Positions 3,817 through 33,807 of a DNA stretch of 33,807 nucleotides are shown here, piece by piece. The notes under the pieces are model-generated. The model worked only from the letters and a program-made list of their open reading frames with translations, did no database searches and was not told where the DNA came from. The position numbers were made by a program, and so were the translations under genes. This DNA comes from a virus (Duplodnaviria > Heunggongvirae > Uroviricota > Caudoviricetes). Each line of letters opens with the position of its first letter. Within the stretch, counting starts at the first letter, position 1. The DNA lies in IMG/VR virus record IMGVR_UViG_2695420701_000007, positions 1 through 33,807 of that record. The stretch is one strand, 5' to 3'.

Positions 3817-5898
3817 TCACCCCGCTGCCAGTTCGCTGTATTCCGCCAGTTGTCCCGGTGTCGCCAGGGTGTCAACGTGCAGTGTGATATCCTGCTTAAC
3901 GTTGTTATTGGTGACTTTGTCGCCCCGGTTGTTGCTTATCTGGTGACTTACCGGCCCGCCCTGGATGGCGGCGCTACGGTTGCCAGTGATAAGCTCCGGG
4001 GCGGGTGTCGGTGCGACGGTCTGTTGTGCGGTGCTGATATTGACACCGGGGATTTTGTTGAGCTTCTCTGCTATCCAGTTCCATGTCCCGGTAAAGGCGC
4101 TCTTAATGGAATCCCATATGCCGTCAAAGAGCTTGCCAATTCCAGCTGTGATATTGCCGAATGTGTCGGCCAGCGAGAAATTTTTAAACCAGTTCGTCAG
4201 ATTGTCCCATCCGGCTTTAATGCTGTTCCATGCATCATCAAACCAGCCCACCACAGCGTTAATGACTTTTAGCAGGGCACTGAAAGCTTCCGTGTCCATG
4301 ATGGCGGCTTTAATACTGTCCCAGTATTTGATAGCCAGACAGATCCCTACGGCAAGTGCGGCAATGGCGAGAATAATCAGGGTTATGGGACTTATCAGGA
4401 GTTGAAGCGCACCGCCTGCGAATGCCGTCGCCACGCCCCACAGGCGCATTGCAACCGCGCCCGCACGTAACACTACGTTCCAGGCTACGATCGCTGCTTT
4501 ACAGATCCCTGCCCAAAGAGCGACCAGCTTTGACCACACCCAGACGGCTTTTTCCTGAATCCATAGCCCCATCAGGCCAAGACGGGTTGAAAGCAGGGAG
4601 GGGCGTAATAAATCCAGGGTGAAGATTAGTCCTTTCCATGCGCCTTTCAGCACGCCAGCAATTCCGCTGAGCCCGGTCATGATAAAGCCGAAGGCCCCCA
4701 TCGTGATACTGGCAAGCGCCCCTGCTGCGGCAAAGGCGAGGGTCATTGCAGTGATATATCCCAGCCAGCGGGCAATATTGGGGAACGTATCCAGCCATTT
4801 CATGAAGGCTTTCCCGCCAGTGATGATTTTTTGCAGGAACGGGGCAAAGACGGGATCGAGCCGCAGACCGATACTGACGCGAACCTGCTCCAGTAAAGAA
4901 TTAACCTGATCCCACGGGTCAACCATCTTTTTCGCCATTTCGATGGCTTTATCCATGCCTTTGATGTTACCTAATGTATTGATGTTCCGTTTCAGCCCGT
5001 CAACATCTCCGGCCAGTAGTTTAATCATGGACACCGCTTCATCGCTGCCAAAGGCTTTTTTCAGCAGGTCTGCATCTGCCACTTTTGACAGATCACCAAA
5101 CTTTCCTTTAATCAGATCGATGATGCCGGTAATGCTTCTGGCACTGCCGTCCCGGTTGGTAAAGTTCAGCCCCAGCACTTTTTGCGCATTCCCAATCCCC
5201 GCCAGGAATGATTTATATTTGGTTCCCGCCTCGCTGCCTGACATGGTGGACTGGAGCTGTCCCAGTACGGCGAACTGTTCAGCGGCAGATACCTTCATTG
5301 CCTGCGCGTTGGCACCCAGCGCAGTAAAGGCAGCAGACATTTCATTACCGGTAGTTTTGAACACCTGAACGGCGGTTGCGGTCTGCCCGGCAATTTGTTC
5401 AACCCACTGCGTGCGCCCCATCTTCTCTGCGGTATTTTTAAAAACACCGTACATGGTGCCCATATAGTTAGTAATGGTGGCCGTGTCTGATTTGGTGGCT
5501 TTGGCGAGAATGGCGGATGCTTCAGTAAATTTTGGCAGTTCATCGCCCTGAAGTCCTGCGATGGCGGACTGGATATCGTAGGCGCTGCGGACGAAATTGC
5601 TGGCGCTTTCGCCGTAGTTAATGGCAAACGTCTGTGAAGTTTTACGCAGCTGATCGAGTGTTTTATTTGCCACATCCAGCGAGCTGACTTCGGCCAGCGC
5701 GGCTTCCATGTCGCGGGCGGGGTTGACCAGTCCTTTTATTCCCTGAGCAGCACCCCATAACCCGGCCACACCAAAACCGAGACGTTTAAAGTCGGCTGTT
5801 GCCTTGTCAGCAAATCCGGTCACAGCCGATTGCGCCTGTTTTAAGGGTCTCGTCAGCTTATCAACCAGACTTAGCGTAAAATCAAGTTCAGCAGCCAT
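3817..5898 (-). CDS. Tail tape measure protein
   Basis: 693 aa, Ala/Gly-rich with long predicted helices and a hydrophobic central block; follows the chaperone/frameshift gene; start ATG overlaps the stop of the E' frame (TAATG). Confidence 0.8.
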   Translation of the reverse strand: MAAELDFTLSLVDKLTRPLKQAQSAVTGFADKATADFKRLGFGVAGLWGAAQGIKGLVNPARDMEAALAEVSSLDVANKTLDQLRKTSQTFAINYGESASNFVRSAYDIQSAIAGLQGDELPKFTEASAILAKATKSDTATITNYMGTMYGVFKNTAEKMGRTQWVEQIAGQTATAVQVFKTTGNEMSAAFTALGANAQAMKVSAAEQFAVLGQLQSTMSGSEAGTKYKSFLAGIGNAQKVLGLNFTNRDGSARSITGIIDLIKGKFGDLSKVADADLLKKAFGSDEAVSMIKLLAGDVDGLKRNINTLGNIKGMDKAIEMAKKMVDPWDQVNSLLEQVRVSIGLRLDPVFAPFLQKIITGGKAFMKWLDTFPNIARWLGYITAMTLAFAAAGALASITMGAFGFIMTGLSGIAGVLKGAWKGLIFTLDLLRPSLLSTRLGLMGLWIQEKAVWVWSKLVALWAGICKAAIVAWNVVLRAGAVAMRLWGVATAFAGGALQLLISPITLIILAIAALAVGICLAIKYWDSIKAAIMDTEAFSALLKVINAVVGWFDDAWNSIKAGWDNLTNWFKNFSLADTFGNITAGIGKLFDGIWDSIKSAFTGTWNWIAEKLNKIPGVNISTAQQTVAPTPAPELITGNRSAAIQGGPVSHQISNNRGDKVTNNNVKQDITLHVDTLATPGQLAEYSELAAG

Positions 5899-19745: not shown

Positions 19746-20137
19746 GAATGGCGCTGCGGTAAAAAGACCCTTTGCGTCAGTGCGGCCTTGCGATTGACGG
19801 CAGTCAGCGTTCTGGCCAGCGCGACATTGTGTTTGCGGGTCTGCTCTTCGTGGTACTTCTGCATGATTTTCCCGGCCGGCGTGAGTGGTTCCGGCTCTTC
19901 CGGTGAACGGCGCGGACGAACGGCAACTATCCAGCTCTGATATTCACTGCCCGGTCGCCTGTTAAGTATGTCGGTGATGGTGGTTGTGGTGGTGCGATCG
20001 GGGCTGGCCACCGTGATTTCCAGTTCGTCCCCGGGCTGTGGTCTTGTGGCTACGCCTCTCAGTGTCATGGCTGGCGTGCGCTGGCGCATAACGGCGTCGA
20101 ACTGCTGACGCTGCATGGTGCAGTGAAATCGCGTCAT
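19706..20137 (-). CDS. Hypothetical protein downstream of replication gene A
   Basis: 143 aa ORF overlapping the end of gene A; Thr/Pro/Arg-rich. Confidence 0.35.
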   Translation of the reverse strand: MTRFHCTMQRQQFDAVMRQRTPAMTLRGVATRPQPGDELEITVASPDRTTTTTITDILNRRPGSEYQSWIVAVRPRRSPEEPEPLTPAGKIMQKYHEEQTRKHNVALARTLTAVNRKAALTQRVFLPQRHSCARPAQHRRDSQ

Positions 20138-22626
20138 GATCTTACCTCCGCTGACGACTCCTGTGTGATGACGATGCGGCGGGTTGTGGCGCTCCAGTAC
20201 GCGATACGCCCGTCGCCCGGGCGAACGCGGGCACCGTTACTCACGGAAATAATGGCTGCGTCAGGCAGCTGCACACCCAGCGCGTCGAGTTCGCGGGTGA
20301 TTTGTGCGATGGTCGTGGTGTCGACAGGCACGACAACCTCCACCCTGACAGGGGTGTCTGATGCTGGTCTGGTGTTATTTTGTCCGGTATCCGTGGCGGG
20401 CGGCTGATTTTTAAGCTGTCTGATGAGCTGTTTCCGCTCGTAATGGCTCAATCCCTGCAACCATTGTGTCAGGCCATTTTCCGGAAGTGTCAGACGTTTC
20501 TCCTGCTGCCTGTTTTCTGTGCCGGTTCCGGCTGTTTTTTCGTCGCCGGGACAGTTATTGCCACGAGTCCAAGGGGCGGCAGGGCCGCCCTGAAGGTCAA
20601 AACCATTTTCGCGGGCGCTGTCTTCCGCTTCCGGTTTACGTCTTACCAGCTTCCAGTTGTCCGGATGCGTGCACACACGGGAGGATTCCCCGATGAGTGG
20701 CGACCAGATCCCGTAAATCTGTACGCTCTGTTCGCCGTAATCGTTCAGCTCATCTGCGAGGTCGTAGGCGGTGCGAATCAGGTAGTCCTTACGTGGAACA
20801 AGTACGCCGCCCTGTTTCTCTATGTAGGTGGCAAAACACCCGGCATCAGCGGCAGCAAGAACCGCATCCATTGCGTCATCCTTCAGCCGTTGCGGGCCTT
20901 CCGGGTTGCGTGCCATCTGGCTGGCAAGGCGGCGCAGTTCACGCCATACCTGACGGGAGGGGATGCCAAAGAACTGGAACTGGCGGACCCGGTGAAGGCG
21001 CGCCCAGCCGATGGCGCGTTCCACGCTTTCTGCCATCGTCTTTCCTGATTCGTCGTCGATGCGCGGTTTGCCTGTTTTCGGGTCAATGCCATCCACGGCG
21101 TGGCTGTCCAGGTTCTTTCCGATGTAGGTGGCGATATAGCTGGTCGGCGTACCTTTCGAACCGTCGACGTACTCCGCCTTAAAGCGCGGAGTTATGTCAT
21201 CGCCCAGCTCGTGGCGGTCTTCACGAATGGCAATATCGCGGGCGATGGTCACGATGCTGTCGATTTCTTCAGGATGTGCAAAGACCATCATATGCCAGTG
21301 CACCGTGCCGTCATGGTGAGGCTCCACCGTGCGGATGCCATACCAGCGCAGGCCCTTGCGGTCCAGTCTGTTACGAACGGCTTTAAAAAAAGTGTTAACC
21401 AGATAATCACTGGAATCGCGCATGGTAGCCCCGTTCCATTTGGGGTTCGGATGACCGTTCTCCGTTGTTGCGTGGTATTTTGACGGGCAGGTGACAGTCA
21501 GAAACACCGCTTTGTCGCCACGGGATTCGGCTATAAGTTCCGCCCCTTTCATGGTGGCCATCATTTCTGCCTTACGGTGAACCGGGTTACTTACTCCCGC
21601 GTAATACACTGTCTCGAGATCAATCGTGAACCCGTCTTCATTTTCCAGCATGAAACTTTTCAGGAAATCGCGTGTTTTCTCGCGCTGTGCGCGAAACTCA
21701 CTTAACGCGTCCTGGCTCAGATAGGGCGATGTTTTTCTGGAAACCAGACAGGCGGCGCGGAGTTGTTCTTCTCTCCACTCGCAACGTAAAAGCCACAGTT
21801 TGCGTTTCCACCAGTCCGCACAGGTCAGGCGAAGGATTGCGCCCGGCAGCAGTTCCGTGTCCGGTTCGTTCTTGCGGTCTTTGTCTGTTGTCAGCGCGTC
21901 ATAATGTGGAGGCATGGCGTGCAGGTGTAGCGCCATGCGGGCCAGCATCTGATACGCCTTCAGTGCCACCTCCATGGTCAGCTCGCCATCTCTGGCACCG
22001 AAACCATCACAGAGTGTTTCAAAGGAGCTGCTGAACATTGCCGCCGTCATGGTGCCCAGCGTCTGTATCTGGTGCTTGTTAAGCTGCGGCAGGTACAGCA
22101 AATCGTCCAGGCGTTCGCGTCCGGCAAGGGCGCGATAACCCGGTGTCAGCCAGCGGCTGTCGGTGCGGTCCAGTCGTTCGAATATTTTGCGCAGGGTTCC
22201 GCGCGCGTAGCCCTCTGATGGTCGACTCTTTTTGCCTTTCTGGCGGTCAGATTCCTGCTTCTTACGTAAAAAAGAGAGGCGGCGGCTCAGAGGTTCACGC
22301 AGATAAACAGGTAGCGCCTTTAGTGTGACAAATGCACGGGCCACCGGGTCTTGTTCTGTTGCCTGGCGCTTGCTGATGATGCTTTGTGTTACCTTCTCGC
22401 GCCGTTCGTCCTCATCGAGGGCGACCATGAGTTTTTTACCCATGTCTGACTGCACAAAAAAGGCTTCTTCTTCCGCCTCCCTGACTTCCTGTGCTTTCAG
22501 ATCTGCTTCCTGGTAGTAGCGTATGGCCTGTTGCAACGGGGTTTCAGGCGTAGGCTGATACTTCGCAAATGTGGCTGGGTCAATGGCCTGCCGTGGTTCG
22601 TTCCAGTCCCAGGTAAATTCACTCAT
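20134..22626 (-). CDS. A: Replication initiation endonuclease, P2 gpA-like (rolling-circle Rep)
   Basis: Listed ORF 20134-22653 (839 aa); probable start MSEFTWDWNEP. Size and position (end of early operon) match P2 gene A; contains His/Tyr-rich central region (GTVHWHMMVFAHPEE ... TPTSYIATYIGKN) compatible with HUH-type endonuclease motifs. Confidence 0.8.
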   Translation of the reverse strand: MSEFTWDWNEPRQAIDPATFAKYQPTPETPLQQAIRYYQEADLKAQEVREAEEEAFFVQSDMGKKLMVALDEDERREKVTQSIISKRQATEQDPVARAFVTLKALPVYLREPLSRRLSFLRKKQESDRQKGKKSRPSEGYARGTLRKIFERLDRTDSRWLTPGYRALAGRERLDDLLYLPQLNKHQIQTLGTMTAAMFSSSFETLCDGFGARDGELTMEVALKAYQMLARMALHLHAMPPHYDALTTDKDRKNEPDTELLPGAILRLTCADWWKRKLWLLRCEWREEQLRAACLVSRKTSPYLSQDALSEFRAQREKTRDFLKSFMLENEDGFTIDLETVYYAGVSNPVHRKAEMMATMKGAELIAESRGDKAVFLTVTCPSKYHATTENGHPNPKWNGATMRDSSDYLVNTFFKAVRNRLDRKGLRWYGIRTVEPHHDGTVHWHMMVFAHPEEIDSIVTIARDIAIREDRHELGDDITPRFKAEYVDGSKGTPTSYIATYIGKNLDSHAVDGIDPKTGKPRIDDESGKTMAESVERAIGWARLHRVRQFQFFGIPSRQVWRELRRLASQMARNPEGPQRLKDDAMDAVLAAADAGCFATYIEKQGGVLVPRKDYLIRTAYDLADELNDYGEQSVQIYGIWSPLIGESSRVCTHPDNWKLVRRKPEAEDSARENGFDLQGGPAAPWTRGNNCPGDEKTAGTGTENRQQEKRLTLPENGLTQWLQGLSHYERKQLIRQLKNQPPATDTGQNNTRPASDTPVRVEVVVPVDTTTIAQITRELDALGVQLPDAAIISVSNGARVRPGDGRIAYWSATTRRIVITQESSAEVRS

Positions 22627-23012
22627 GGTTGACACCCTGTCACGCGTTGCCATTCCTGCGAGAAGAGGGCAGAAAGACGGTTAAACTCAGTGGTGTATTC
22701 ACTCAGCGAGGCACACCCGCCAGCGGTGCGATGCGCCAGCATTGCTGCAAACACGGAGGCAGGGGAGTTGTAATACGCCAGCAGGGAGTCGCCGTGTGGT
22801 GTCAGGGTGTACAGGGCCAGACCGTGTGGTGTGAAGTCCACGCGGTAACAGTCGTCCACGATGAAATAAAGGGGGCCTGCGTTCTCTGGTTTTGTGGTGC
22901 GAGCCTGGCTGGCGCGGGCACGGAGATAGAAATCAAACATTGCCTGAAGTTTTGGAGCCAGACGGGTGTCCTGTGTGCGCACCCATTTTACGAAGTCATG
23001 ACGGTCAATCAT
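22623..23012 (-). CDS. Hypothetical protein upstream of gene A
   Basis: 129 aa ORF, stop adjacent to gene A start. Confidence 0.4.
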   Translation of the reverse strand: MIDRHDFVKWVRTQDTRLAPKLQAMFDFYLRARASQARTTKPENAGPLYFIVDDCYRVDFTPHGLALYTLTPHGDSLLAYYNSPASVFAAMLAHRTAGGCASLSEYTTEFNRLSALFSQEWQRVTGCQP

Positions 23013-23084
23013 GCTGCACCTCGCTTTGTTAAAGATGTGCGAAGGCCTCCCGCCGCAAGGTGCAGGAAAGGCCCGGAACAGGAA

Positions 23085-23315
23085 TTAATGGAGTTTGTTT
23101 TGCTGCTGGATGAGCTGTTGAAGCTCGTGCAGATCATCCGCCAGATAGCTGAATACAGCGGCGCAGTAGCTGTCTGACAGCGCGTGGCTGCGTTCATGCA
23201 GCATATTGATGTGCATGATTTGCGCGACGCGTGATGCGCGGAAAAGTCTGCGGTTGATTTCAGTCCGGATGTGACGACGCGCAGCGTATGCGCGCTGTTG
23301 TTTGCGGTTTGCCAT
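23085..23315 (-). CDS. Small basic hypothetical protein
   Basis: 76 aa, Arg-rich N-terminus (MANRKQQRAYAARRHIRTEINRRLF), follows a terminator-containing non-coding region. Confidence 0.35.
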   Translation of the reverse strand: MANRKQQRAYAARRHIRTEINRRLFRASRVAQIMHINMLHERSHALSDSYCAAVFSYLADDLHELQQLIQQQNKLH

Positions 23316-23492
23316 GATGTGGCCTCTATGTGTGTAAGTTTTGAAAACTCACCATCCAGAGCTGCGAAACTGTGGGTGGCGAGACGTACGAGGTTCGCAG
23401 TACCGGCAAACATAGAACCCGGCCCGACCGAAGTCGGCCCCGTACGCCCCACCATAATTCGTGTGCGAAAAAGATGTGGCGATACAGTACGC

Positions 23493-23515
23493 ACAAAAAA
23501 ACCGCTGGCGCGGTT
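23493..23515 (-). terminator. Rho-independent terminator candidate (minus strand)
   Basis: Minus-strand reading AACCGCGCCAGCGGTTTTTTTGTG: GC-rich hairpin (ACCGC/GCGGT) followed by a T7 run, inside a roughly 320-bp non-coding stretch. Confidence 0.5.
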
Positions 23516-23635
23516 GTGCGCTATGTTTGTCAGCGGGCTGCGAAACCCGGCACCCGTTTTATGAGGTGCAGCGGAAATGTAACCTGACTGATTGCGACAT
23601 GGCAAGCGGTTTTTTTGTGTGTGCATGATGATCAC

Positions 23636-24190
23636 TCAGTTCGGCAGCAGTTCGTACAACAGGGCGTCGGCGGCGGTCCGGCGGTTGTAGAGGTGAAACG
23701 CCGTATCATCGCTGATGTGCATTTGCATCGTGATGTTGATGTGTTTCGCGATTATGCAGAACGTCATGTTGCGTCTGTCGCGTAGCTCCGTAACCAGCTC
23801 AGCCAGACGATCGCTGTATCTGGTGCAATGGTGGCTCTCGCCGCATTTCTTAAGGCTGTAACCCCGTTTATGCAGTGTGTACCTCACGGTGCACTCGCTG
23901 CGTCCCACCTTCCGGGCCAGTTCCCGTGCGGTTTTTGCGTGACGGTTTTTGGTGAGAAAGGCGATGGCTTCTGCACTCAGCGGTGCTTTTCTCTTGCGAC
24001 CAATCAACCCGCGATTACGTAAAAAAAGAATCCGGTGCATCACTGCGCTGCGGGTTCGCTGAAGTCGTTCAGCCATTTGCCATGTGCTGTGATCCTGATA
24101 AAGCGAGATAAGCAGTTCGTCTTCCTGTTGTGTCCAGGCACTGACGTGCTTCGGTGCTTTACCTGGTCCCCCCATTGGTTTCAGAAACAT
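23636..24190 (-). CDS. Putative DNA-binding regulator with two HTH-like repeats
   Basis: 184 aa; two helix-turn-helix-like segments (STWQMAERLQRTRSAVMHRI and TARELARKVGRSECTVRYTL). Confidence 0.4.
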   Translation of the reverse strand: MFLKPMGGPGKAPKHVSAWTQQEDELLISLYQDHSTWQMAERLQRTRSAVMHRILFLRNRGLIGRKRKAPLSAEAIAFLTKNRHAKTARELARKVGRSECTVRYTLHKRGYSLKKCGESHHCTRYSDRLAELVTELRDRRNMTFCIIAKHINITMQMHISDDTAFHLYNRRTAADALLYELLPN

Positions 24191-24492
24191 GATTTGGCCT
24201 CCTTACGGCTTTCTGGTGTGGAGATGATCAGATTCAGTTTCAGGGCGGTGGCGTGTTCCTCTTTTGCCCCCGGCGAGTCCTCCCAGCCATCCAGCAGGTA
24301 AATCACATCGGCACAGTGCAGCATGGCGCTCCCGATAAGCATGTAGTCCCTGTATCTCAGCCCGTCAGGGAGTGTTGCGGGGTTGAGTACGGTATGACCC
24401 TGCATCCTCAGGCGGGTCGCCGTCATGGTGAAGGCGGTGCGGTTGAAATCAGGCTTCCCCGTCATGGGGCCAGCGATATAGATAACGGCCAT
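24181..24492 (-). CDS. Nucleoside 2-deoxyribosyltransferase-like protein (DUF4406-like)
   Basis: 103 aa starting MAVIYIAGPMTGKPDFNRTAF, the typical N-terminus of the DUF4406 / deoxyribosyltransferase-like fold found in phages. Confidence 0.5.
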   Translation of the reverse strand: MAVIYIAGPMTGKPDFNRTAFTMTATRLRMQGHTVLNPATLPDGLRYRDYMLIGSAMLHCADVIYLLDGWEDSPGAKEEHATALKLNLIISTPESRKEAKSCF

Positions 24493-25451
24493 TACATGAT
24501 CTCCGTGGTGGGGTGTGGAGCGGGAATGTGAGACAGCCAGCCCGCATTGACATCCCGGATCCGGACCTCACGGGCTGGCGGATAAACACCAATCACCTCT
24601 TTTGCCTGCTGGCGTGCACTGCTGCTGGCAGCCACAGCGCGGCGAACGCTCAGGGTGTGCAGCTCAAACGAGGAATAGATCTGCCGGGTTTCGGAGGTGT
24701 CACTGTTGGAGACCACCGGGTGGATACCGTAACGCTGCCAGGCGTTCATCATGAGCGCCGCAAGGTCACGGTGGTCTTTGCGGGTAAATGCCCGGCCGTT
24801 GTAGTGAGTGAACGCCTCTTTACCGTCCGGTGGCAGGTAGGGCGGATCGCAGTAAATGGCGATATCGCCGTGCACCGAAGAAAAACGGCGGATCTCAGCC
24901 GGCATTGTGAAGGCTGTACGGAAATCCGCGTGAATAAAGCGGGTCCGGGTCTCGTTGGCTTTATCAGCAAACAGGCGCATTTCCTGGCAGGGGAAATAAG
25001 GCATGCGGTGTTTGCCGAATGGCACATTGAATTCGCCTTTTTGGTTGGTGCGGTACAGGCCGTTAAAGCAATGGCGGTTCAGGTACAGAAACAGCGCTGC
25101 CCATTCCAGGGATTCGCCGCGTAATCTGTCGGTGGCCAGCGCGATGGTGTTAAATGCCCCGCGATGGCGTTTGTAGGCTTCCGGTGTGCCGCCATCCTTA
25201 AAGAGCGACCATGCACGATCCATTAATTCCGTGGTGTTGGTCGTCAGTTGCTGGTAGAAATTAATCAGCGCGGGGTTGCTGTCACACAATACGTAATAGT
25301 CATAATCCGTGTTCATGAAGACCGAGCCGCCGCCCACGAAGGGTTCGATCAGGCAGGCGGCTTTGGGTAAATATTCGCGCAGCTGCGGCATGATACTGAA
25401 TTTGCCGCCCGCCCATTTGAGCGGTGAGCGCTGGTTCAGAATACCTTTCAT
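24492..25451 (-). CDS. dam: DNA adenine methyltransferase (Dam-like, D12 class N6-A MTase)
   Basis: 319 aa; N-terminal LKWAGGK motif, catalytic DPPY motif (IAIYCDPPYLPP), FxGxG-like SAM region (EPFVGGGSV). Confidence 0.8.
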   Translation of the reverse strand: MKGILNQRSPLKWAGGKFSIMPQLREYLPKAACLIEPFVGGGSVFMNTDYDYYVLCDSNPALINFYQQLTTNTTELMDRAWSLFKDGGTPEAYKRHRGAFNTIALATDRLRGESLEWAALFLYLNRHCFNGLYRTNQKGEFNVPFGKHRMPYFPCQEMRLFADKANETRTRFIHADFRTAFTMPAEIRRFSSVHGDIAIYCDPPYLPPDGKEAFTHYNGRAFTRKDHRDLAALMMNAWQRYGIHPVVSNSDTSETRQIYSSFELHTLSVRRAVAASSSARQQAKEVIGVYPPAREVRIRDVNAGWLSHIPAPHPTTEIM

Positions 25452-25687
25452 GCGTCACTCTCCGGTTTTTTCCCGCGTGTGAATGGGGTGGGTTCGAGCG
25501 TGATTTCGCGCCGGATATTGCGCACGCGTAACTGCGAGCCGTCGTTCAGGCAGATCACGCGTTCATCATCCGGGCCGGTGATGTTGTCCAGCAGCGAACG
25601 GTCAGGGTTGATGTGGCGTTCCCTGATGCGGTAATGGTCGCCGGTGACAGTGCTCTCGCACAGAATGCAGATAATGGCGGGTTTCAT
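25448..25687 (-). CDS. Small hypothetical protein
   Basis: 79 aa ORF with CxxC (CILCES) at the N-terminus; ends overlap neighbours. Confidence 0.35.
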   Translation of the reverse strand: MKPAIICILCESTVTGDHYRIRERHINPDRSLLDNITGPDDERVICLNDGSQLRVRNIRREITLEPTPFTRGKKPESDA

Positions 25688-26214
25688 GCGTCAGCCCTCC
25701 ACTGCGACAACATCACGATGTGGGTGAAGGTGTACCGCCAGTAGGTTTCGTTTTTGGGGTTTTCTATGTGGCAGGTGTCCCGCATGAATGCAAAGAGTTC
25801 GTCGCGGGGATGGTTTTCAGGGTTAAAGCCGTCCCTGACGGCCACTTCATCGGTTATCTGGCGGCCCTGTATTACACCGATATCGGCAATGAAGGCCACG
25901 GCGAACGGCACGGTTTCGCCGTTCTTGTTTTCTGTGACCAGATGAATGTTGTCATACTGCCGGTAGGGCTGTCTTTTCAGGAGTCCGGCAAAGTCTGATG
26001 CGCGGGTAAATGTGGTTCCCTCCTCAAAAACCAGGGTACCGCCGGCGCTGTAATCGGGAAGAACGATGTTGCGGGTCAGGGTGTCTTCATGAAAATATTC
26101 TGCTGACTCCTGGCCCGCCTGGTAGCAATCAAACCCCGTCGGGCGAAGGGATGTGGTCTTGCGTCCGTTGCGGAATGCGTCAATAAAGCAGGGCTTAAAT
26201 TTCATCTGTAACAT
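25684..26214 (-). CDS. ASCH/PUA-like domain protein (putative)
   Basis: 176 aa; N-terminus MKFKPCFIDAFRNGRKTTSLRP resembles the start of ASCH-domain proteins. Confidence 0.4.
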   Translation of the reverse strand: MLQMKFKPCFIDAFRNGRKTTSLRPTGFDCYQAGQESAEYFHEDTLTRNIVLPDYSAGGTLVFEEGTTFTRASDFAGLLKRQPYRQYDNIHLVTENKNGETVPFAVAFIADIGVIQGRQITDEVAVRDGFNPENHPRDELFAFMRDTCHIENPKNETYWRYTFTHIVMLSQWRADA

Positions 26215-26278
26215 CGTCTTATCCTCTTCACGTATTCGTTATGGTTAAGCAGTACCCATGTCCGGCCTTCGTCCAGAC

Positions 26279-26455
26279 TTAACAGCCGGTAACGGTACAT
26301 GACGTTGATGACGCGGGCGGTACCCGCTCCAGCCGTCGCACGTGTGACCGGTCCCCCTTCAGCAGGCGACGGTATGCCGCCCTTGCTGCCCGCTCCGGCT
26401 TTCCCCCTGGCTTCATCCGGTTTTTGCGGTGTCGCGCAGGGATAATCAGCTTCAT
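26279..26455 (-). CDS. Small basic hypothetical protein (not in supplied ORF track)
   Basis: 58 codons by hand translation (MKLIIPARHRKNRMKPGGKPERAARAAYRRLLKGDRSHVRRLERVPPASSTSCTVTGC); its ATG overlaps the stop of the upstream gene (ATGA), suggesting translational coupling. Confidence 0.35.
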   Translation of the reverse strand: MKLIIPARHRKNRMKPGGKPERAARAAYRRLLKGDRSHVRRLERVPPASSTSCTVTGC

Positions 26456-26874
26456 TTGTCGGGGGTTATTTCCAGGTTTCTGGTCTTTACCCAGCGGTCT
26501 TCCTCGAAGGGGGAATCGAAACGGACGAAAACCCGGTCAATGGCGGGGCTACTGGTGCGGGTGTCAACGACCGTTCCGCGTTGCTGCGGACTGTTTTTCA
26601 GACATACGCGGGTCCCTTTGATGAATGTGGTGTGGCAGGTGTGTTCAGCACTTTCCTTTGCCGGGTCAGCTGCTGTCTGAAGGGTGGCAAGCTGATTTCT
26701 CAGACAGGTGTTTTCCTGTACCACCTGTTCAATTGCGTCTGCGGCGATAAGGTGAGGCTCCACTGACAGCACCATCATCGGGTTGTCAGTGTCAGCCATC
26801 ATTGCGGCGTAGTTGCGTAAAAACATTGCGCCCGCAAGGGCTTTATCTTTGAGGGTGAGTGTCGGATTAATCAT
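26452..26874 (-). CDS. Hypothetical protein
   Basis: 140 aa ORF in the early operon. Confidence 0.4.
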   Translation of the reverse strand: MINPTLTLKDKALAGAMFLRNYAAMMADTDNPMMVLSVEPHLIAADAIEQVVQENTCLRNQLATLQTAADPAKESAEHTCHTTFIKGTRVCLKNSPQQRGTVVDTRTSSPAIDRVFVRFDSPFEEDRWVKTRNLEITPDK

Positions 26875-26970
26875 TTTTATTTCCCTTATTCAGATTGTGC
26901 GAATCCCGCCGCGTGAGCGGTGTATTAACGAAACCGGTTAATTAACTAAAGAGGCGGCGTGCTTTACGCT

Positions 26971-27156
26971 CTACGTCTTCTTTGTGCTGAATGAATGCGT
27001 TGTATGCATCCCGTTTTTTTTCTGGCGACGTCTGTCGCGTATTTCCCGCCATGTATCAATAAGTGTCAGTATGCAGATGGCAAAAAACATTGCGGCTGCA
27101 ATCAGTGTGATAACAAATAACGACTCCGGTACACTGAATGAATAACTGAAATTCAT
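26971..27156 (-). CDS. Small single-pass membrane protein
   Basis: 61 aa; hydrophobic helix LFVITLIAAAMFFAICILTLI followed by basic tail RDRRRQKKNG. Confidence 0.4.
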   Translation of the reverse strand: MNFSYSFSVPESLFVITLIAAAMFFAICILTLIDTWREIRDRRRQKKNGMHTTHSFSTKKT

Positions 27157-27161
27157 CGTGA

Positions 27162-27404
27162 TTACTCCGTAATTATTGCGGGTTCGGGAACCATGCCATC
27201 CGTTAATTGTTTCGCCATCCGGTTAAGTTCTTTAAGGTCCTCGCTGGCTCCCGTATCTTTTGAACAAAACAGGGTGTTGCGGACGCTGAATATTCCGCAC
27301 TTCATTACTTCGAAGTGTGTTTTTCTGGCGCGGGGATTAATTTCGTTATCGAAGTAATATCCCTGCAGAAATTCGTTTACCTGTTCTGCTGTGTGTTTTC
27401 TCAT
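27162..27404 (-). CDS. Hypothetical protein
   Basis: 80 aa ORF, 5 nt upstream of the small membrane protein gene. Confidence 0.4.
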   Translation of the reverse strand: MRKHTAEQVNEFLQGYYFDNEINPRARKTHFEVMKCGIFSVRNTLFCSKDTGASEDLKELNRMAKQLTDGMVPEPAIITE

Positions 27405-27445
27405 AACGGAGTCCTCGTTAAAAATAACCGGTGATAAACCCGCTG

Positions 27446-27796
27446 TTATAACTCAGCCTGTTTAATAAAATTTTCTCCGTAAAGAAGGCGATCAACTGTG
27501 CGTAGCGCTTCGTACAACGTGAAATCCTGCCCGAACTGATTGTCGCCGCAGCTCAGAGCAAAAATGCGGTTTCCGGTAAACGGATTGCGCGGGTATTTGT
27601 GGACCACTATTCCAGCTTTCTCAATCATCCAGGTATGCTCGCCAATTTGTTTTACTGTATGGCCATCTGGTGTTGCGTGCGTCTCGTTCAGGTTATAGCG
27701 ACTGTTACTACGTGATGCACTGGTAGCGACGTGGTGTACATGGCGTTCTACGCCATTACGAAATTTGGAGTATGGATTATTAGTGTTTTTTTTCAT
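27446..27796 (-). CDS. Hypothetical protein
   Basis: 116 aa ORF in the early operon. Confidence 0.4.
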   Translation of the reverse strand: MKKNTNNPYSKFRNGVERHVHHVATSASRSNSRYNLNETHATPDGHTVKQIGEHTWMIEKAGIVVHKYPRNPFTGNRIFALSCGDNQFGQDFTLYEALRTVDRLLYGENFIKQAEL

Positions 27797-27817
27797 GATG
27801 ATGCTCTGTTCATTGTT

Positions 27818-28021
27818 TTAGCTGTTAGCCAAAGCGTCTTTTAACATCGCCACAAGGTTTACTTCAGGCTTTTCCATTTTGGCGCGTTTGGGGCGGATAA
27901 TAATTCGACCGTCAGCCAACATCTTTTTGCATGTATTAAGAGGGATACCTGTTATCTCTGCATATTTCTGCAGGGATACATAGGGGGCATTCACATTGAT
28001 ATTGATGGTTATACCTGACAT
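27818..28021 (-). CDS. Cox-like HTH regulator / excisionase-type protein
   Basis: 67 aa; APYVSLQKYAEITGIPLNTCKKMLADGRIIIRP follows the pattern of P2 Cox N-terminus (IPYQEFAKLIGKSTGAVRRMIDKGKLPVI). Confidence 0.5.
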   Translation of the reverse strand: MSGITININVNAPYVSLQKYAEITGIPLNTCKKMLADGRIIIRPKRAKMEKPEVNLVAMLKDALANS

Positions 28022-28037
28022 CCCACTAACCTCCTGA

Positions 28038-28244
28038 TCAGGAAGATTTGTTTTGTTCTTTCTGGGTTAGCTCTAGGCCGCGAAGGAAGATCATGCGCGC
28101 CATGTTAGAGGATGAGCGTTGTTCTTTAGCTGCCATCTCATCAATAAAGGCGCGCTCCTCCGCTGACAGTCGAAGTGCCAGTCTTTGACCTGTGGCGGTG
28201 TTACGCGGAATGCGTGACTTGGTGTCGTGACTAACTTGATTCAT
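28038..28244 (-). CDS. Ribbon-helix-helix-like small regulator; first gene of the early operon (Cro/Apl position)
   Basis: 68 aa; RLALRLSAEERAFIDEMA...SSNMARMIF resembles an RHH (Arc/CopG-type) fold; divergent from the repressor gene. Confidence 0.45.
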   Translation of the reverse strand: MNQVSHDTKSRIPRNTATGQRLALRLSAEERAFIDEMAAKEQRSSSNMARMIFLRGLELTQKEQNKSS

Positions 28245-28303
28245 AGTGGTACATTGTGATCATCTAATGGTTCGTGAAATTACTTTAGGGAACAAAACTT
28301 CCT
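28245..28303. promoter_or_regulatory. Divergent promoter/operator region of the lysis-lysogeny switch
   Basis: 59-bp gap between divergent repressor (plus) and early-operon (minus) starts; contains the TGATCA palindrome (with a GATC Dam site) in ACATTGTGATCATCTAATGG. Confidence 0.5.
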
Positions 28304-28717
28304 ATGTCAACAGAAAAAGAGGAACTAAGCGTCATTATTGGCCGTCGATTACGGGAGGAGCGAGAGAAAATTGGCATGACCCAAGATGATATGGCGTCGA
28401 TTTTTGAAGTTTCTACAAAGACTTGGGGGAAGTATGAAAGAGGGGTGACTACACCGGATGCAGTTATGTTGAATCTCTTGGGAGGGCGCTGCGGAGTAGA
28501 TGTCTATTACATACTTTCTGGTAGTCGTGCACATGGCATCCCTAATGCTACTGAAGATGAGATTGAGCTAATTAAAATATATCGTTCTGCACCTTTGGCT
28601 GTTAAGGCGGCAGCTTTGGCAGCCTTGACTGCTGGTAGTTTGTCTCTAGGTACAATAAGAGCTTCTGGCAAAGGCCATCGTATTGCAGGTCGTGACTATA
28701 ACGAAACGAAGGGTTAG
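28304..28717 (+). CDS. Immunity repressor, XRE-family HTH (CI/C-like)
   Basis: 137 aa; N-terminal HTH (GMTQDDMASIFEVSTKTWGKYERG); divergent from the early operon and co-oriented with integrase. Confidence 0.7.
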   Translation: MSTEKEELSVIIGRRLREEREKIGMTQDDMASIFEVSTKTWGKYERGVTTPDAVMLNLLGGRCGVDVYYILSGSRAHGIPNATEDEIELIKIYRSAPLAVKAAALAALTAGSLSLGTIRASGKGHRIAGRDYNETKG

Positions 28718-33711: not shown

Positions 33712-33807
33712 CTGATGAATCCCCTAATGATTTTGGTAAAAATCATTAAGTTAAGGTGGATACACATCTTGTCATATGATCAAATGGTTTCGCGAAAAAT
33801 CAATAAT
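33712..33807 (+). mobile_element. IS10 (Tn10-type) outside end, partial; extends beyond the window
   Basis: CTGATGAATCCCCTAATGATTTTGGTAAAAATCATTAAGTTAAGGTGGATACACATCTTGTCATATGATCAAATGGTTTCGCGAAAAATCAATAAT matches the IS10 outside terminus as I recall it (terminal inverted repeat, pIN promoter region with its GATC site). Confidence 0.75.

Follow-up and report, generated by a model that had tools for sequence, protein, structure and literature searches.

We analyzed a block of four genes at positions 24181-26214 of a 33,807-nucleotide stretch of viral DNA (IMG/VR record IMGVR_UViG_2695420701_000007, positions 1 to 33,807; hereafter, the window). All four open reading frames (ORFs) were confirmed on the minus strand. 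In the order of transcription, they encode an ASCH-fold protein of the YqfB type (176 amino acids [aa], 25684-26214), a 79-aa protein (p79, 25448-25687), a Dam methylase of the D12 class (319 aa, 24492-25451), and a DUF4406 protein (103 aa, 24181-24492). The explanation we favor, with about even chances of being right, is that a standard orphan Dam would methylate GATC sites in replicating phage DNA and that two optional, co-transcribed enzymes would handle modified nucleosides or nucleotides. The Dam gene was found in most related phages without either neighbor, and genes of the two neighboring kinds were repeatedly found next to methylase genes of unrelated families.

The Dam methylase and its place in the early operon

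The Dam protein matched PF02086 with 178.3 bits (cutoff 22; 3e-52) and TIGR00571 with 236.7 bits (cutoff 114.85; 3.6e-70). It contains LKWAGGK, FVGGG (F38 to G42), and DPPY (D202 to Y205), and the latter two motifs are invariant in 16 relatives. The assignment to the Dam family, proposed in an earlier sequence-only reading of the window from LKWAGGK and DPPY, was thus confirmed. A full-length alignment with E. coli Dam (2g1p) gave E=1e-55. Among the residues with which the E. coli enzyme reads GATC (K9, Y119, N120, L122, R124, and P134), five are matched in the window by K12, N130, L132, R134, and P144, and Y119 is replaced by F129. Two other residues, R137 and Y138, are replaced by Lys and His, respectively. 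The protein is predicted to be a GATC-specific N6-adenine methyltransferase. Its score against NF008152, the equivalog model of chromosomal Dam, was 232 bits, below the cutoff of 441, and judged by sequence it is a phage paralogue and not an ortholog of the host-type chromosomal enzyme.

The best PADLOC model for this protein was 'orphan methyltransferase' (oMTase). No restriction nuclease domain was found with Pfam, PHROG, NCBIfam, and PADLOC among the scanned gene products of positions 20134-28717, where the ORFs at 26971-27156 and 27162-27404 were scanned with Pfam only. The window contains 98 GATC sites compared with 116 +/- 10 expected; GATC is therefore not avoided, and its density is normal. 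Orphan Dam enzymes of phages are well known. The closest deposited phage relatives of the window Dam were those of P2-like Klebsiella phages, with ca. 52% identity. The orphan Dams of P2-like phages (e.g., Klebsiella phage 3LV2017), like E. coli Dam (2G1P), share with the window Dam the D12 class, the DPPY and FxGxG motifs, and the GATC-contact residues; the P2-like phage enzymes also resemble it in having no cognate endonuclease and in being encoded directly upstream of gene A. The window Dam differs from the known phage enzymes in a C-terminal tail of ca. 25 aa, in its translational coupling to DUF4406, and in the limited identity of ca. 52%. A query with the window Dam against genome contigs returned only distant chromosomal Dam proteins of Methylophaga and its relatives and gave nothing on gene context. 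Among the viral relatives of this Dam, four contigs (L202, L212, L213, and L219) carry ORFs of 727-805 aa, whose starts may be over-extended because ORFs were called from first start to stop; their length suggests fusions to additional domains.

The window is a P2/186-like prophage of E. coli/Shigella. Positions 23600-26900 were 99.5-99.9% identical to prophages in 5 of 5,426 complete E. coli genomes and to no others among them. These prophages adjoin yecA and contain P2-type capsid, terminase, tail, and integrase genes. A megablast search of deposited phages with the block gave no match, so that the block is known from prophages only, namely those in the five genomes and the IMG/VR contigs. 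A promoter-like site (TTGACA-17-TAAAGT, 10/12 match) was found at 28282-28310 on the minus strand, pointing away from a divergent helix-turn-helix (HTH) repressor-like gene (28304-28717, plus strand), and is likely, as far as its sequence goes, to be the early lytic promoter of the operon to which the block belongs. From this site, the operon runs through cox/cII-like genes and several small genes, including the block, to the replication endonuclease gene A (P2 gpA family, 20134-22653, minus strand; PF05840, 9.1e-128). No strong minus-strand terminator was found between the start of the operon and position 23515. These positions agree with the earlier label of the block as part of an early operon. 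The genes for ASCH, p79, Dam, DUF4406, and a Myb/SANT-like protein successively overlap by 4, 4, 1, and 10 nucleotides at ATGA or TAATG junctions, and the start codon of DUF4406 overlaps the stop codon of Dam (TAATG), an arrangement typical of translational coupling. The plus-strand ORFs within the block had no family matches, which gives no support for them as genes.

After induction or infection, Dam would be transcribed from the early promoter together with gene A and would methylate the ca. 98 GATC sites of the replicating phage genome. Methylation of the progeny DNA would then be complete, with no hemimethylated state left behind, and would shield it from enzymes whose cleavage requires unmethylated GATC. 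The proposed term 'anti-restriction' is possible only in this ordinary sense, that is, as self-methylation by an orphan Dam.

Methylase neighborhoods in related phages

In order to describe the gene contexts of Dam, 80 IMG/VR contigs encoding relatives of the window Dam (39-100% identity) were compared; the relatives were gathered with an alignment query, and a single-sequence viral query returned near-identical contigs only. Neither ASCH nor DUF4406 was present at 61 of the 80 loci, and gpA lay downstream of Dam at 70 of them. These results indicate that Dam is the ancestral, self-sufficient resident of the operon. Where ASCH was present, the order ASCH-p79-Dam was invariant (27/27 loci), with ASCH identity down to 47%. 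DUF4406 was found at 12 of these 27 loci and was absent from the other 15; the remaining ASCH-bearing loci have the order Dam-Myb-C5 methylase or Dam-gpA. Conversely, ASCH is missing from E. coli prophages whose DUF4406 is 60% identical; their gene order is exonuclease-ParE-like-Dam-two small ORFs-DUF4406. Among the 80 Dam loci, all components occurred together only in the phage type of the window itself. This independent presence and absence indicates that the three genes are separable and that Dam is independent of its neighbors.

The surroundings of DUF4406 were surveyed separately at 80 IMG/VR loci encoding relatives with 53-100% identity in at least 69 distinct gene contexts. An adenine methylase gene was located directly upstream (position -1) at 16 loci (D12 at eight, PF05869 at seven, and MT-A70 at one), and a C5 methylase gene was located directly downstream (+1) at 6 loci. 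Methylases occupied 20% of the -1 positions compared with 27 of 886 (3%) of the other positions from -8 to +8 (Fisher p=5e-8, with contig relatedness ignored). Annotated pairs of methylase and DUF4406 include gp57-gp58 of phage N15 and a pair in Aeromonas phage 4_D05. The one-base overlap of Dam and DUF4406 was retained even where Dam was only 43-67% identical.

ASCH-like genes showed a comparable tendency. A second, non-orthologous gene of the ASCH superfamily (PF12961 DUF3850, also matching ASCH, with GxKxxExR) adjoins Dam, on one side or the other, in 7 further P2-like contigs, and ASCH-like genes of two unrelated families lay beside Dam at 14 of the 80 Dam loci. At 11 DUF4406 loci, an ASCH-like gene was found within three genes, and 10 of these 11 also had an adenine methylase within three genes. 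These 10 loci fall into at least four arrangements: the window type; D12 Dam..DUF4406-DUF3850; PF05869 Dam-DUF4406-x-x-'GRKTQTRR'; and MT-A70..DUF4406..'GRKTQTRR'. Proteins of the last-named kind have ILDGRKTQTRR near the N terminus and, as in YqfB, WVIEFK at the C terminus. Pfam ASCH was matched with E=0.046, and a pairwise comparison with an ASCH-positive relative gave E=6e-6; a PDB profile search and hhalign were negative for an ASCH assignment. They probably represent a third ASCH-like family.

The individual genes behind these counts are as follows. DUF3850/ASCH-type genes stand by a D12 Dam at L203:5351-5755, L199:5322-5591, and 4196-4492 of both L209 and L210, and also in L195, L196, and L198; another directly follows DUF4406 at L033:4519-5076. 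The 'GRKTQTRR' members (183-223 aa) are L084:4789-5457, L046:4500-5135, L031:4833-5381, L073:4786-5355, and L068:4973-5635. They begin with MKERGMIFNGEMVRAILDGRKTQTRR, end with ..NPWVWVIEFK, and resemble a YqfB-type ASCH protein with a large insertion; their genes follow DUF4406 at a distance of two to three genes, and an adenine methylase (PF05869 or MT-A70) is usually encoded upstream.

These distributions bear on the alternative that the block is a chance mosaic, in which ASCH-p79 and DUF4406 would be 'moron'-type inserts, unrelated and without any tie to methylation, and would adjoin Dam only because the stretch from cII/fil to gene A is where all non-essential early genes of P2-like phages collect. 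We regard this as rather unlikely. It agrees with the gain and loss of ASCH-p79 and DUF4406 independently of each other and of Dam, with the many Dam loci (61/80) that have neither neighbor, and with the occurrence of DUF4406 after a DnaB helicase gene (ca. 14 loci) and, in actinophages, beside genes annotated as dCMP deaminase or MazG-type. Moreover, ASCH genes of this family occur in a single phage lineage only, and their 27/27 linkage may simply reflect inherited gene order. However, chance does not readily account for the peak of methylases at position -1 of DUF4406 (20% versus 3%), which is formed by three non-orthologous families of adenine methylases and is accompanied by C5 methylases at +1. 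It is also opposed by the unrelated second ASCH family found next to Dam, on one side or the other, in further P2-like contigs, by the adenine methylase at 10 of 11 DUF4406 loci with an ASCH-like gene, and by the independent report of an ASCH-methylase association (PMC4738411). The suggestion that the block is a module rather than a simple orphan methylase therefore stands in part: a tie between the neighbors and methylases has independent co-occurrence support (16/80 DUF4406 loci and 14/80 Dam loci), and an obligate module is contradicted by the 61 loci with neither gene.

In the published association, ASCH domains are repeatedly fused to, or in operons with, N6-adenine methylases (Iyer, Zhang & Aravind 2016, PMC4738411), and PUA-like domains with calcineurin or DrHyd effectors have been linked to N6-adenine methylases (Zhang et al. 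2026 preprint, PMC12871103). The block has the same domain types, i.e., a PUA-clan barrel, an adenine methylase, and a Rossmannoid of the DrHyd superfamily. Unlike those systems, it consists of small separate proteins in a phage early lytic operon, with each accessory gene optional, and its ASCH protein keeps catalytic residues, whereas both papers propose a reader or sensor. By domain content, the block is a phage, split-gene, early-operon version of the published ASCH/PUA-methylase combination, with DUF4406 as the DrHyd-type member. A prophage defense or exclusion system of the type 'PUA-like sensor + DrHyd effector + N6-adenine methylase', with ASCH as the sensor of a modified nucleotide and DUF4406 as the effector depleting a nucleotide or NAD+, appears very unlikely to us. 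Pfam, NCBIfam, and PADLOC detected no calcineurin-CE, HAD, HNH, or McrB effector among the scanned operon products, and PADLOC gave no match, and no defense-system assignment, for ASCH, p79, or DUF4406.

The ASCH, p79, and DUF4406 proteins

The ASCH protein contains the octapeptide G17-R-K19-T-T-S22-L-R24, which fits GxKxx[E/T]xR, belongs to the 'GKTR' class, and corresponds to GRKTITIR of YqfB. K19, R24, and D128 were invariant in 39 homologues, and position 22 was always Ser or Thr. The fold is the PUA-like beta-barrel of solved ASCH proteins, with an insertion of ca. 50 aa after the octapeptide (residues ca. 28-78) that is predicted to form beta hairpins. PF04266 was matched at E<=1 by 27 of the 39 homologues (best, 1.2e-5), and two remote relatives of the same length, P0286 and P0287, passed its cutoff with 26.4 and 33.0 bits. 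The fold and the octapeptide upheld the assignment as an ASCH/PUA-like gene, though the PF04266 score of the window protein itself was below the cutoff. At the position of the acid, the remote relatives have A-x-x-E-G-M/F, the window protein has A-V-R-D128-G-F, and YqfB has A-E-Q-E74-N-M. The E-G-M/F of the remote relatives favors D128 as the catalytic acid; the alignments instead prefer E133.

In YqfB, K21, T24, and R26 are essential, and the T24S variant keeps its activity (PMC6972931). In a 2026 preprint, all 19 ASCH proteins tested removed N4-acetylcytidine (ac4C) from tRNA. The idea of ASCH as a reader of N6-methyladenine (m6A) is an older prediction (PMC4738411), which had no experimental test as of 2024. 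Based on the conserved Lys, Ser/Thr, Arg, and acid residues, a hydrolase acting on an N-acylated base is the better-supported biochemical guess, and the window protein resembles a nucleoside/tRNA N-acyl amidohydrolase. It differs from the YqfB/ac4C amidohydrolases, which are compact single domains of ca. 103 aa, in the insertion of ca. 50 aa, in Ser for Thr, and in Val for His70. It is also phage-encoded, always paired with the 79-aa protein, and located two genes from Dam, and its family is very rare. Salmonella, E. coli, and Shigella were the only sources of its 116 clusters, and 16 representative clusters were retrieved at E<=1e-3 among 1.84 billion. A tblastn search of phages with the ASCH protein gave no match. 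The enzyme would bind a modified base, flipped out or free, and remove an exocyclic N-acyl group by hydrolysis, probably together with its constant 79-aa partner; the model substrate is N4-acetylcytidine, either within tRNA or as the nucleoside.

That partner, p79, was present at all 27 ASCH loci. It matched phrog_20193 (3e-47) and gave no match in Pfam, NCBIfam, or PADLOC; its 41 clusters are all enterobacterial. Its cysteines are a single CxxC (C7 and C10) and C46. In divergent homologues, CxxC is replaced by WISY or WVVF. The small CxxC ORF of the sequence-only reading is thus a real, conserved gene, and its CxxC is not a conserved motif. A zinc finger or other conserved metal-binding CxxC was considered and rejected on the same grounds, namely that there is only one CxxC and that it is replaced in homologues.

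The DUF4406 protein matched PF14359 with 104 bits (cutoff 22; 5.8e-30) over residues 3-90 (profile positions 2-89 of 91). Its predicted model was of high confidence, with the CMP/hmCMP hydrolase MilB, deoxyribosyltransferases, and Rcl as the best fold matches. The fold is the three-layer Rossmannoid of the N-(deoxy)ribosyltransferase-like/DrHyd superfamily. No sequence similarity to PDB entries was detectable. Invariant in the family are Y5/G8/P9, N17-R18, L-N-P-x3-P-D-G-L, and S73-x-G75-x3-E79. In a full-length, though statistically weak, hhalign alignment to human DNPH1, whose query sequence was checked against PDB, S73, G75, and E79 fell on S98, G100, and E104, and Y5 fell on Y24. The Glu acts as the nucleophile in DNPH1/Rcl, where the 5'-phosphate is bound by the Ser; deoxyribosyltransferases have, at the position of the DNPH1 Ser, an Asp that binds the 5'-OH. 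PDB entries name DNPH1 '5-hydroxymethyl-dUMP N-hydrolase'.

In the window protein, Ser73 is at the position of that Asp, and the chain ends ca. 60 residues earlier than those of the fold matches (135-165 aa). Because of the Ser at the Asp position and the missing C-terminal segment, DUF4406 is deoxyribosyltransferase-like in fold only. No match to PF05014 was found at E<=0.01. The earlier assignment as a DUF4406-type, nucleoside-deoxyribosyltransferase-like protein was correct as to family and fold. DUF4406 looks like a minimal nucleotide N-glycosidase or nucleotide binder rather than a transferase. It is distinguished from DNPH1/Rcl and MilB by being ca. 60 residues shorter and by its own N17-R18 and L-N-P-x3-P-D-G-L motifs, and from nucleoside 2-deoxyribosyltransferases (PF05014, EC 2.4.2.6) by the absence of a profile match, by Ser for Asp, and by the missing C-terminal segment. 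The protein would cleave the N-glycosidic bond of a (modified) deoxynucleoside 5'-monophosphate (dNMP), e.g., methylated dNMPs released from methylated DNA.

DUF4406 is present in 628 phage records. A literature search found no functional study of DUF4406, only incidental mentions in three papers, and the papers of the Aravind group on viral DrHyd domains contained the ADP-ribosyl-cyclase-type versions only, with DUF4406 absent. In eight viral contigs (L045, L047, L048, L062, L066, L069, L072, and L074; e.g., L048:2139-2777), ORFs of 212-216 aa combine a DUF4406 domain (residues 16-105) with a C-terminal extension of ca. 100 aa that has no Pfam match. The starts of ORFs in viral contigs were taken as the first ATG, GTG, or TTG; because the L048 ORF opens with TTG and its residue 10 is an in-frame Met, ca. 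9 N-terminal residues may be absent from the actual product.

These features of DUF4406 also bear on a hypermodification pathway, in which the three enzymes would install a non-canonical base, for example through base exchange by the deoxyribosyltransferase-like protein. Such a pathway would unite a transferase-like fold, a methylase, and a fold that binds modified bases. We nevertheless consider it highly improbable, since DUF4406 is outside PF05014, with Ser at the position of the 5'-OH-binding Asp and without the C-terminal active-site segment, since the genes are separable in nature, and since Dam looks like a plain GATC enzyme. Scans of the operon products with Pfam, PHROG, and NCBIfam detected no precursor-synthesis family and no transglycosylase, amino-, acyl-, or glycosyl-transferase, or kinase of a hypermodification pathway. 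A nucleic-acid modification module beyond Dam, which the sequence-only reading had raised, was thus not borne out: further biosynthetic enzymes were not found in these scans, and the GATC residues are kept.

Surrounding elements and the proposed role of the flanking genes

Directly upstream of ASCH, a small ParE-like gene (26202-26455, minus strand) is broken. It would encode 85 aa if intact; in the window, a 4-bp deletion in a CCGC repeat, seen in a DNA alignment, divides it into ORFs of 58 and 32 aa, of which only the latter, the tail, has a RefSeq annotation ('ParE family toxin-like'). An intact homologue (L091:3701-3955) matched PF24732 ParE_like with 1.1e-9. In relatives, including many P2-like contigs that lack ASCH, intact copies lie directly upstream of ASCH or Dam. 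The ParE-like gene is a more constant neighbor of Dam than ASCH or DUF4406.

Downstream of DUF4406 is the gene for the Myb/SANT-like helix-turn-helix protein (184 aa, 23636-24190, minus strand), which gave weak HTH/Myb matches in Pfam and matched phrog_323 (2.4e-27). By synteny, this gene is the one that usually follows Dam or DUF4406 in the lineage, and we treat it as context only. In many Salmonella relatives, a C5 DNA methylase gene comes directly after it. The Pfam list of the homologue at L004:6726-7229 includes a faint match to GcrA. GcrA is a methylation-sensitive regulator in Caulobacter. The Myb/SANT-like protein may be a methylation-linked regulator.

The 321-nucleotide gap downstream of the block contains two Rfam RNAs above their gathering scores (23372-23569, minus strand). 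These are the Hfq-binding RNA isrK (23495-23569; 69 bits), which has its own promoter-like site by sequence match (23605-23576) and a predicted hairpin resembling a terminator (23515-23500), and a C4 antisense RNA (23372-23459; 81.8 bits). The next gene encodes a 76-aa protein of the 'Derepression' family (23085-23315; PF25738). Together, isrK, C4, and the 'Derepression' gene resemble an antirepressor-type RNA switch within the early operon. At the other end of the window, a partial RNA-OUT, the antisense RNA of IS10 (33757-33807, minus strand; 60.6 bits), is cut by the window end. This match indicates an IS10-type element at the edge of the prophage. The closest E. coli relative has IS600 within the prophage instead.

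With regard to the block itself, the products of the flanking genes would probably act on modified nucleosides or nucleotides and not on the methylation reaction. This 'clean-up' reading is based on the descriptions of the ASCH protein EOLA1 and of DNPH1 as enzymes on free modified nucleosides or nucleotides. In a 2026 preprint (Zhang et al., PMC12871103), a PUA-clan sensor was shown to bind N6-methyl-dAMP (m6-dAMP) that originates from Dam-methylated DNA. The flanking genes could serve counter-defense, with DUF4406 destroying m6-dAMP or another nucleotide alarm and ASCH binding or inactivating one, so that sensors such as PUA-Cal-HAD would be blunted. The DNPH1-like motif of DUF4406 suits a dNMP substrate, the early lytic operon is where anti-defense genes are expected, and DUF4406 is widespread in phages. 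On the other hand, the trigger in the preprint arises from host-DNA degradation by T-even phages, and the phage countermeasure described there consists of DNA mimics and not of nucleotide hydrolases. A phage-encoded Dam would, furthermore, raise m6A and not lower it. We therefore hold counter-defense to be clearly unlikely. A more elaborate set of 'writer plus cleaners' is, in our estimation, a speculative long shot. In such a set, carried by temperate phages, an adenine methylase would be combined with a DNPH1-like DUF4406 N-glycosidase that destroys methylated dNMPs such as m6-dAMP and with a catalytic ASCH protein that hydrolyzes or sequesters another modified nucleoside; the set would erase methylome-derived alarms, blunt PUA-Cal-HAD-like immunity, and keep modified nucleotides out of the replication pool.

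Several points weigh against the explanation that we favor, an orphan Dam with two enzymes for modified nucleosides or nucleotides. P2-like phages are not known to degrade host DNA, a circumstance that also tells against counter-defense, and the source of methylated dNMPs is therefore not obvious. DUF4406, with ca. 90 aa, does not have the C-terminal elements with which deoxyribosyltransferases and DNPH1 complete their active sites and may for this reason only bind a ligand, and the statistics of its sequence alignment with DNPH1 are weak (E=0.13). As to ASCH, the PF04266 score of the window protein was 16.1 bits (cutoff 21.2; E=0.019), and hhalign of its profile with YqfB was weak even with the insertion removed, when the alignment became colinear over all of YqfB. 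In the local hhalign, the insertion-free global hhalign, and the pairwise alignment, E74 of YqfB fell on E133, and the position of YqfB His70 is occupied by Val124 in the window, with His in some homologues. The evidence for the ASCH assignment of the 'GRKTQTRR' family is likewise weak. Finally, the co-occurrence counts ignore the relatedness of contigs, the surveyed loci belong to early/replication regions of temperate phages that are rich in accessory genes and in which small genes without mutual relation collect, and genes for DnaB helicase and for methylases are about equally frequent upstream of DUF4406.

If the association is positional only, the block would amount to a plain orphan Dam accompanied by two accessory genes that have nothing to do with it. 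The question of nucleotide processing is timely, because m6-dAMP was reported as a bacterial immune trigger in a 2026 preprint. The confident DNPH1/MilB-like fold of DUF4406, its invariant Ser-Gly-Glu motif, and its marked placement behind unrelated families of methylases make this abundant family experimentally approachable. Together with the recurrent pairing of ASCH and methylases, this placement offers a cheap and concrete hypothesis, namely that these phage proteins may process methylated or acylated nucleotides.

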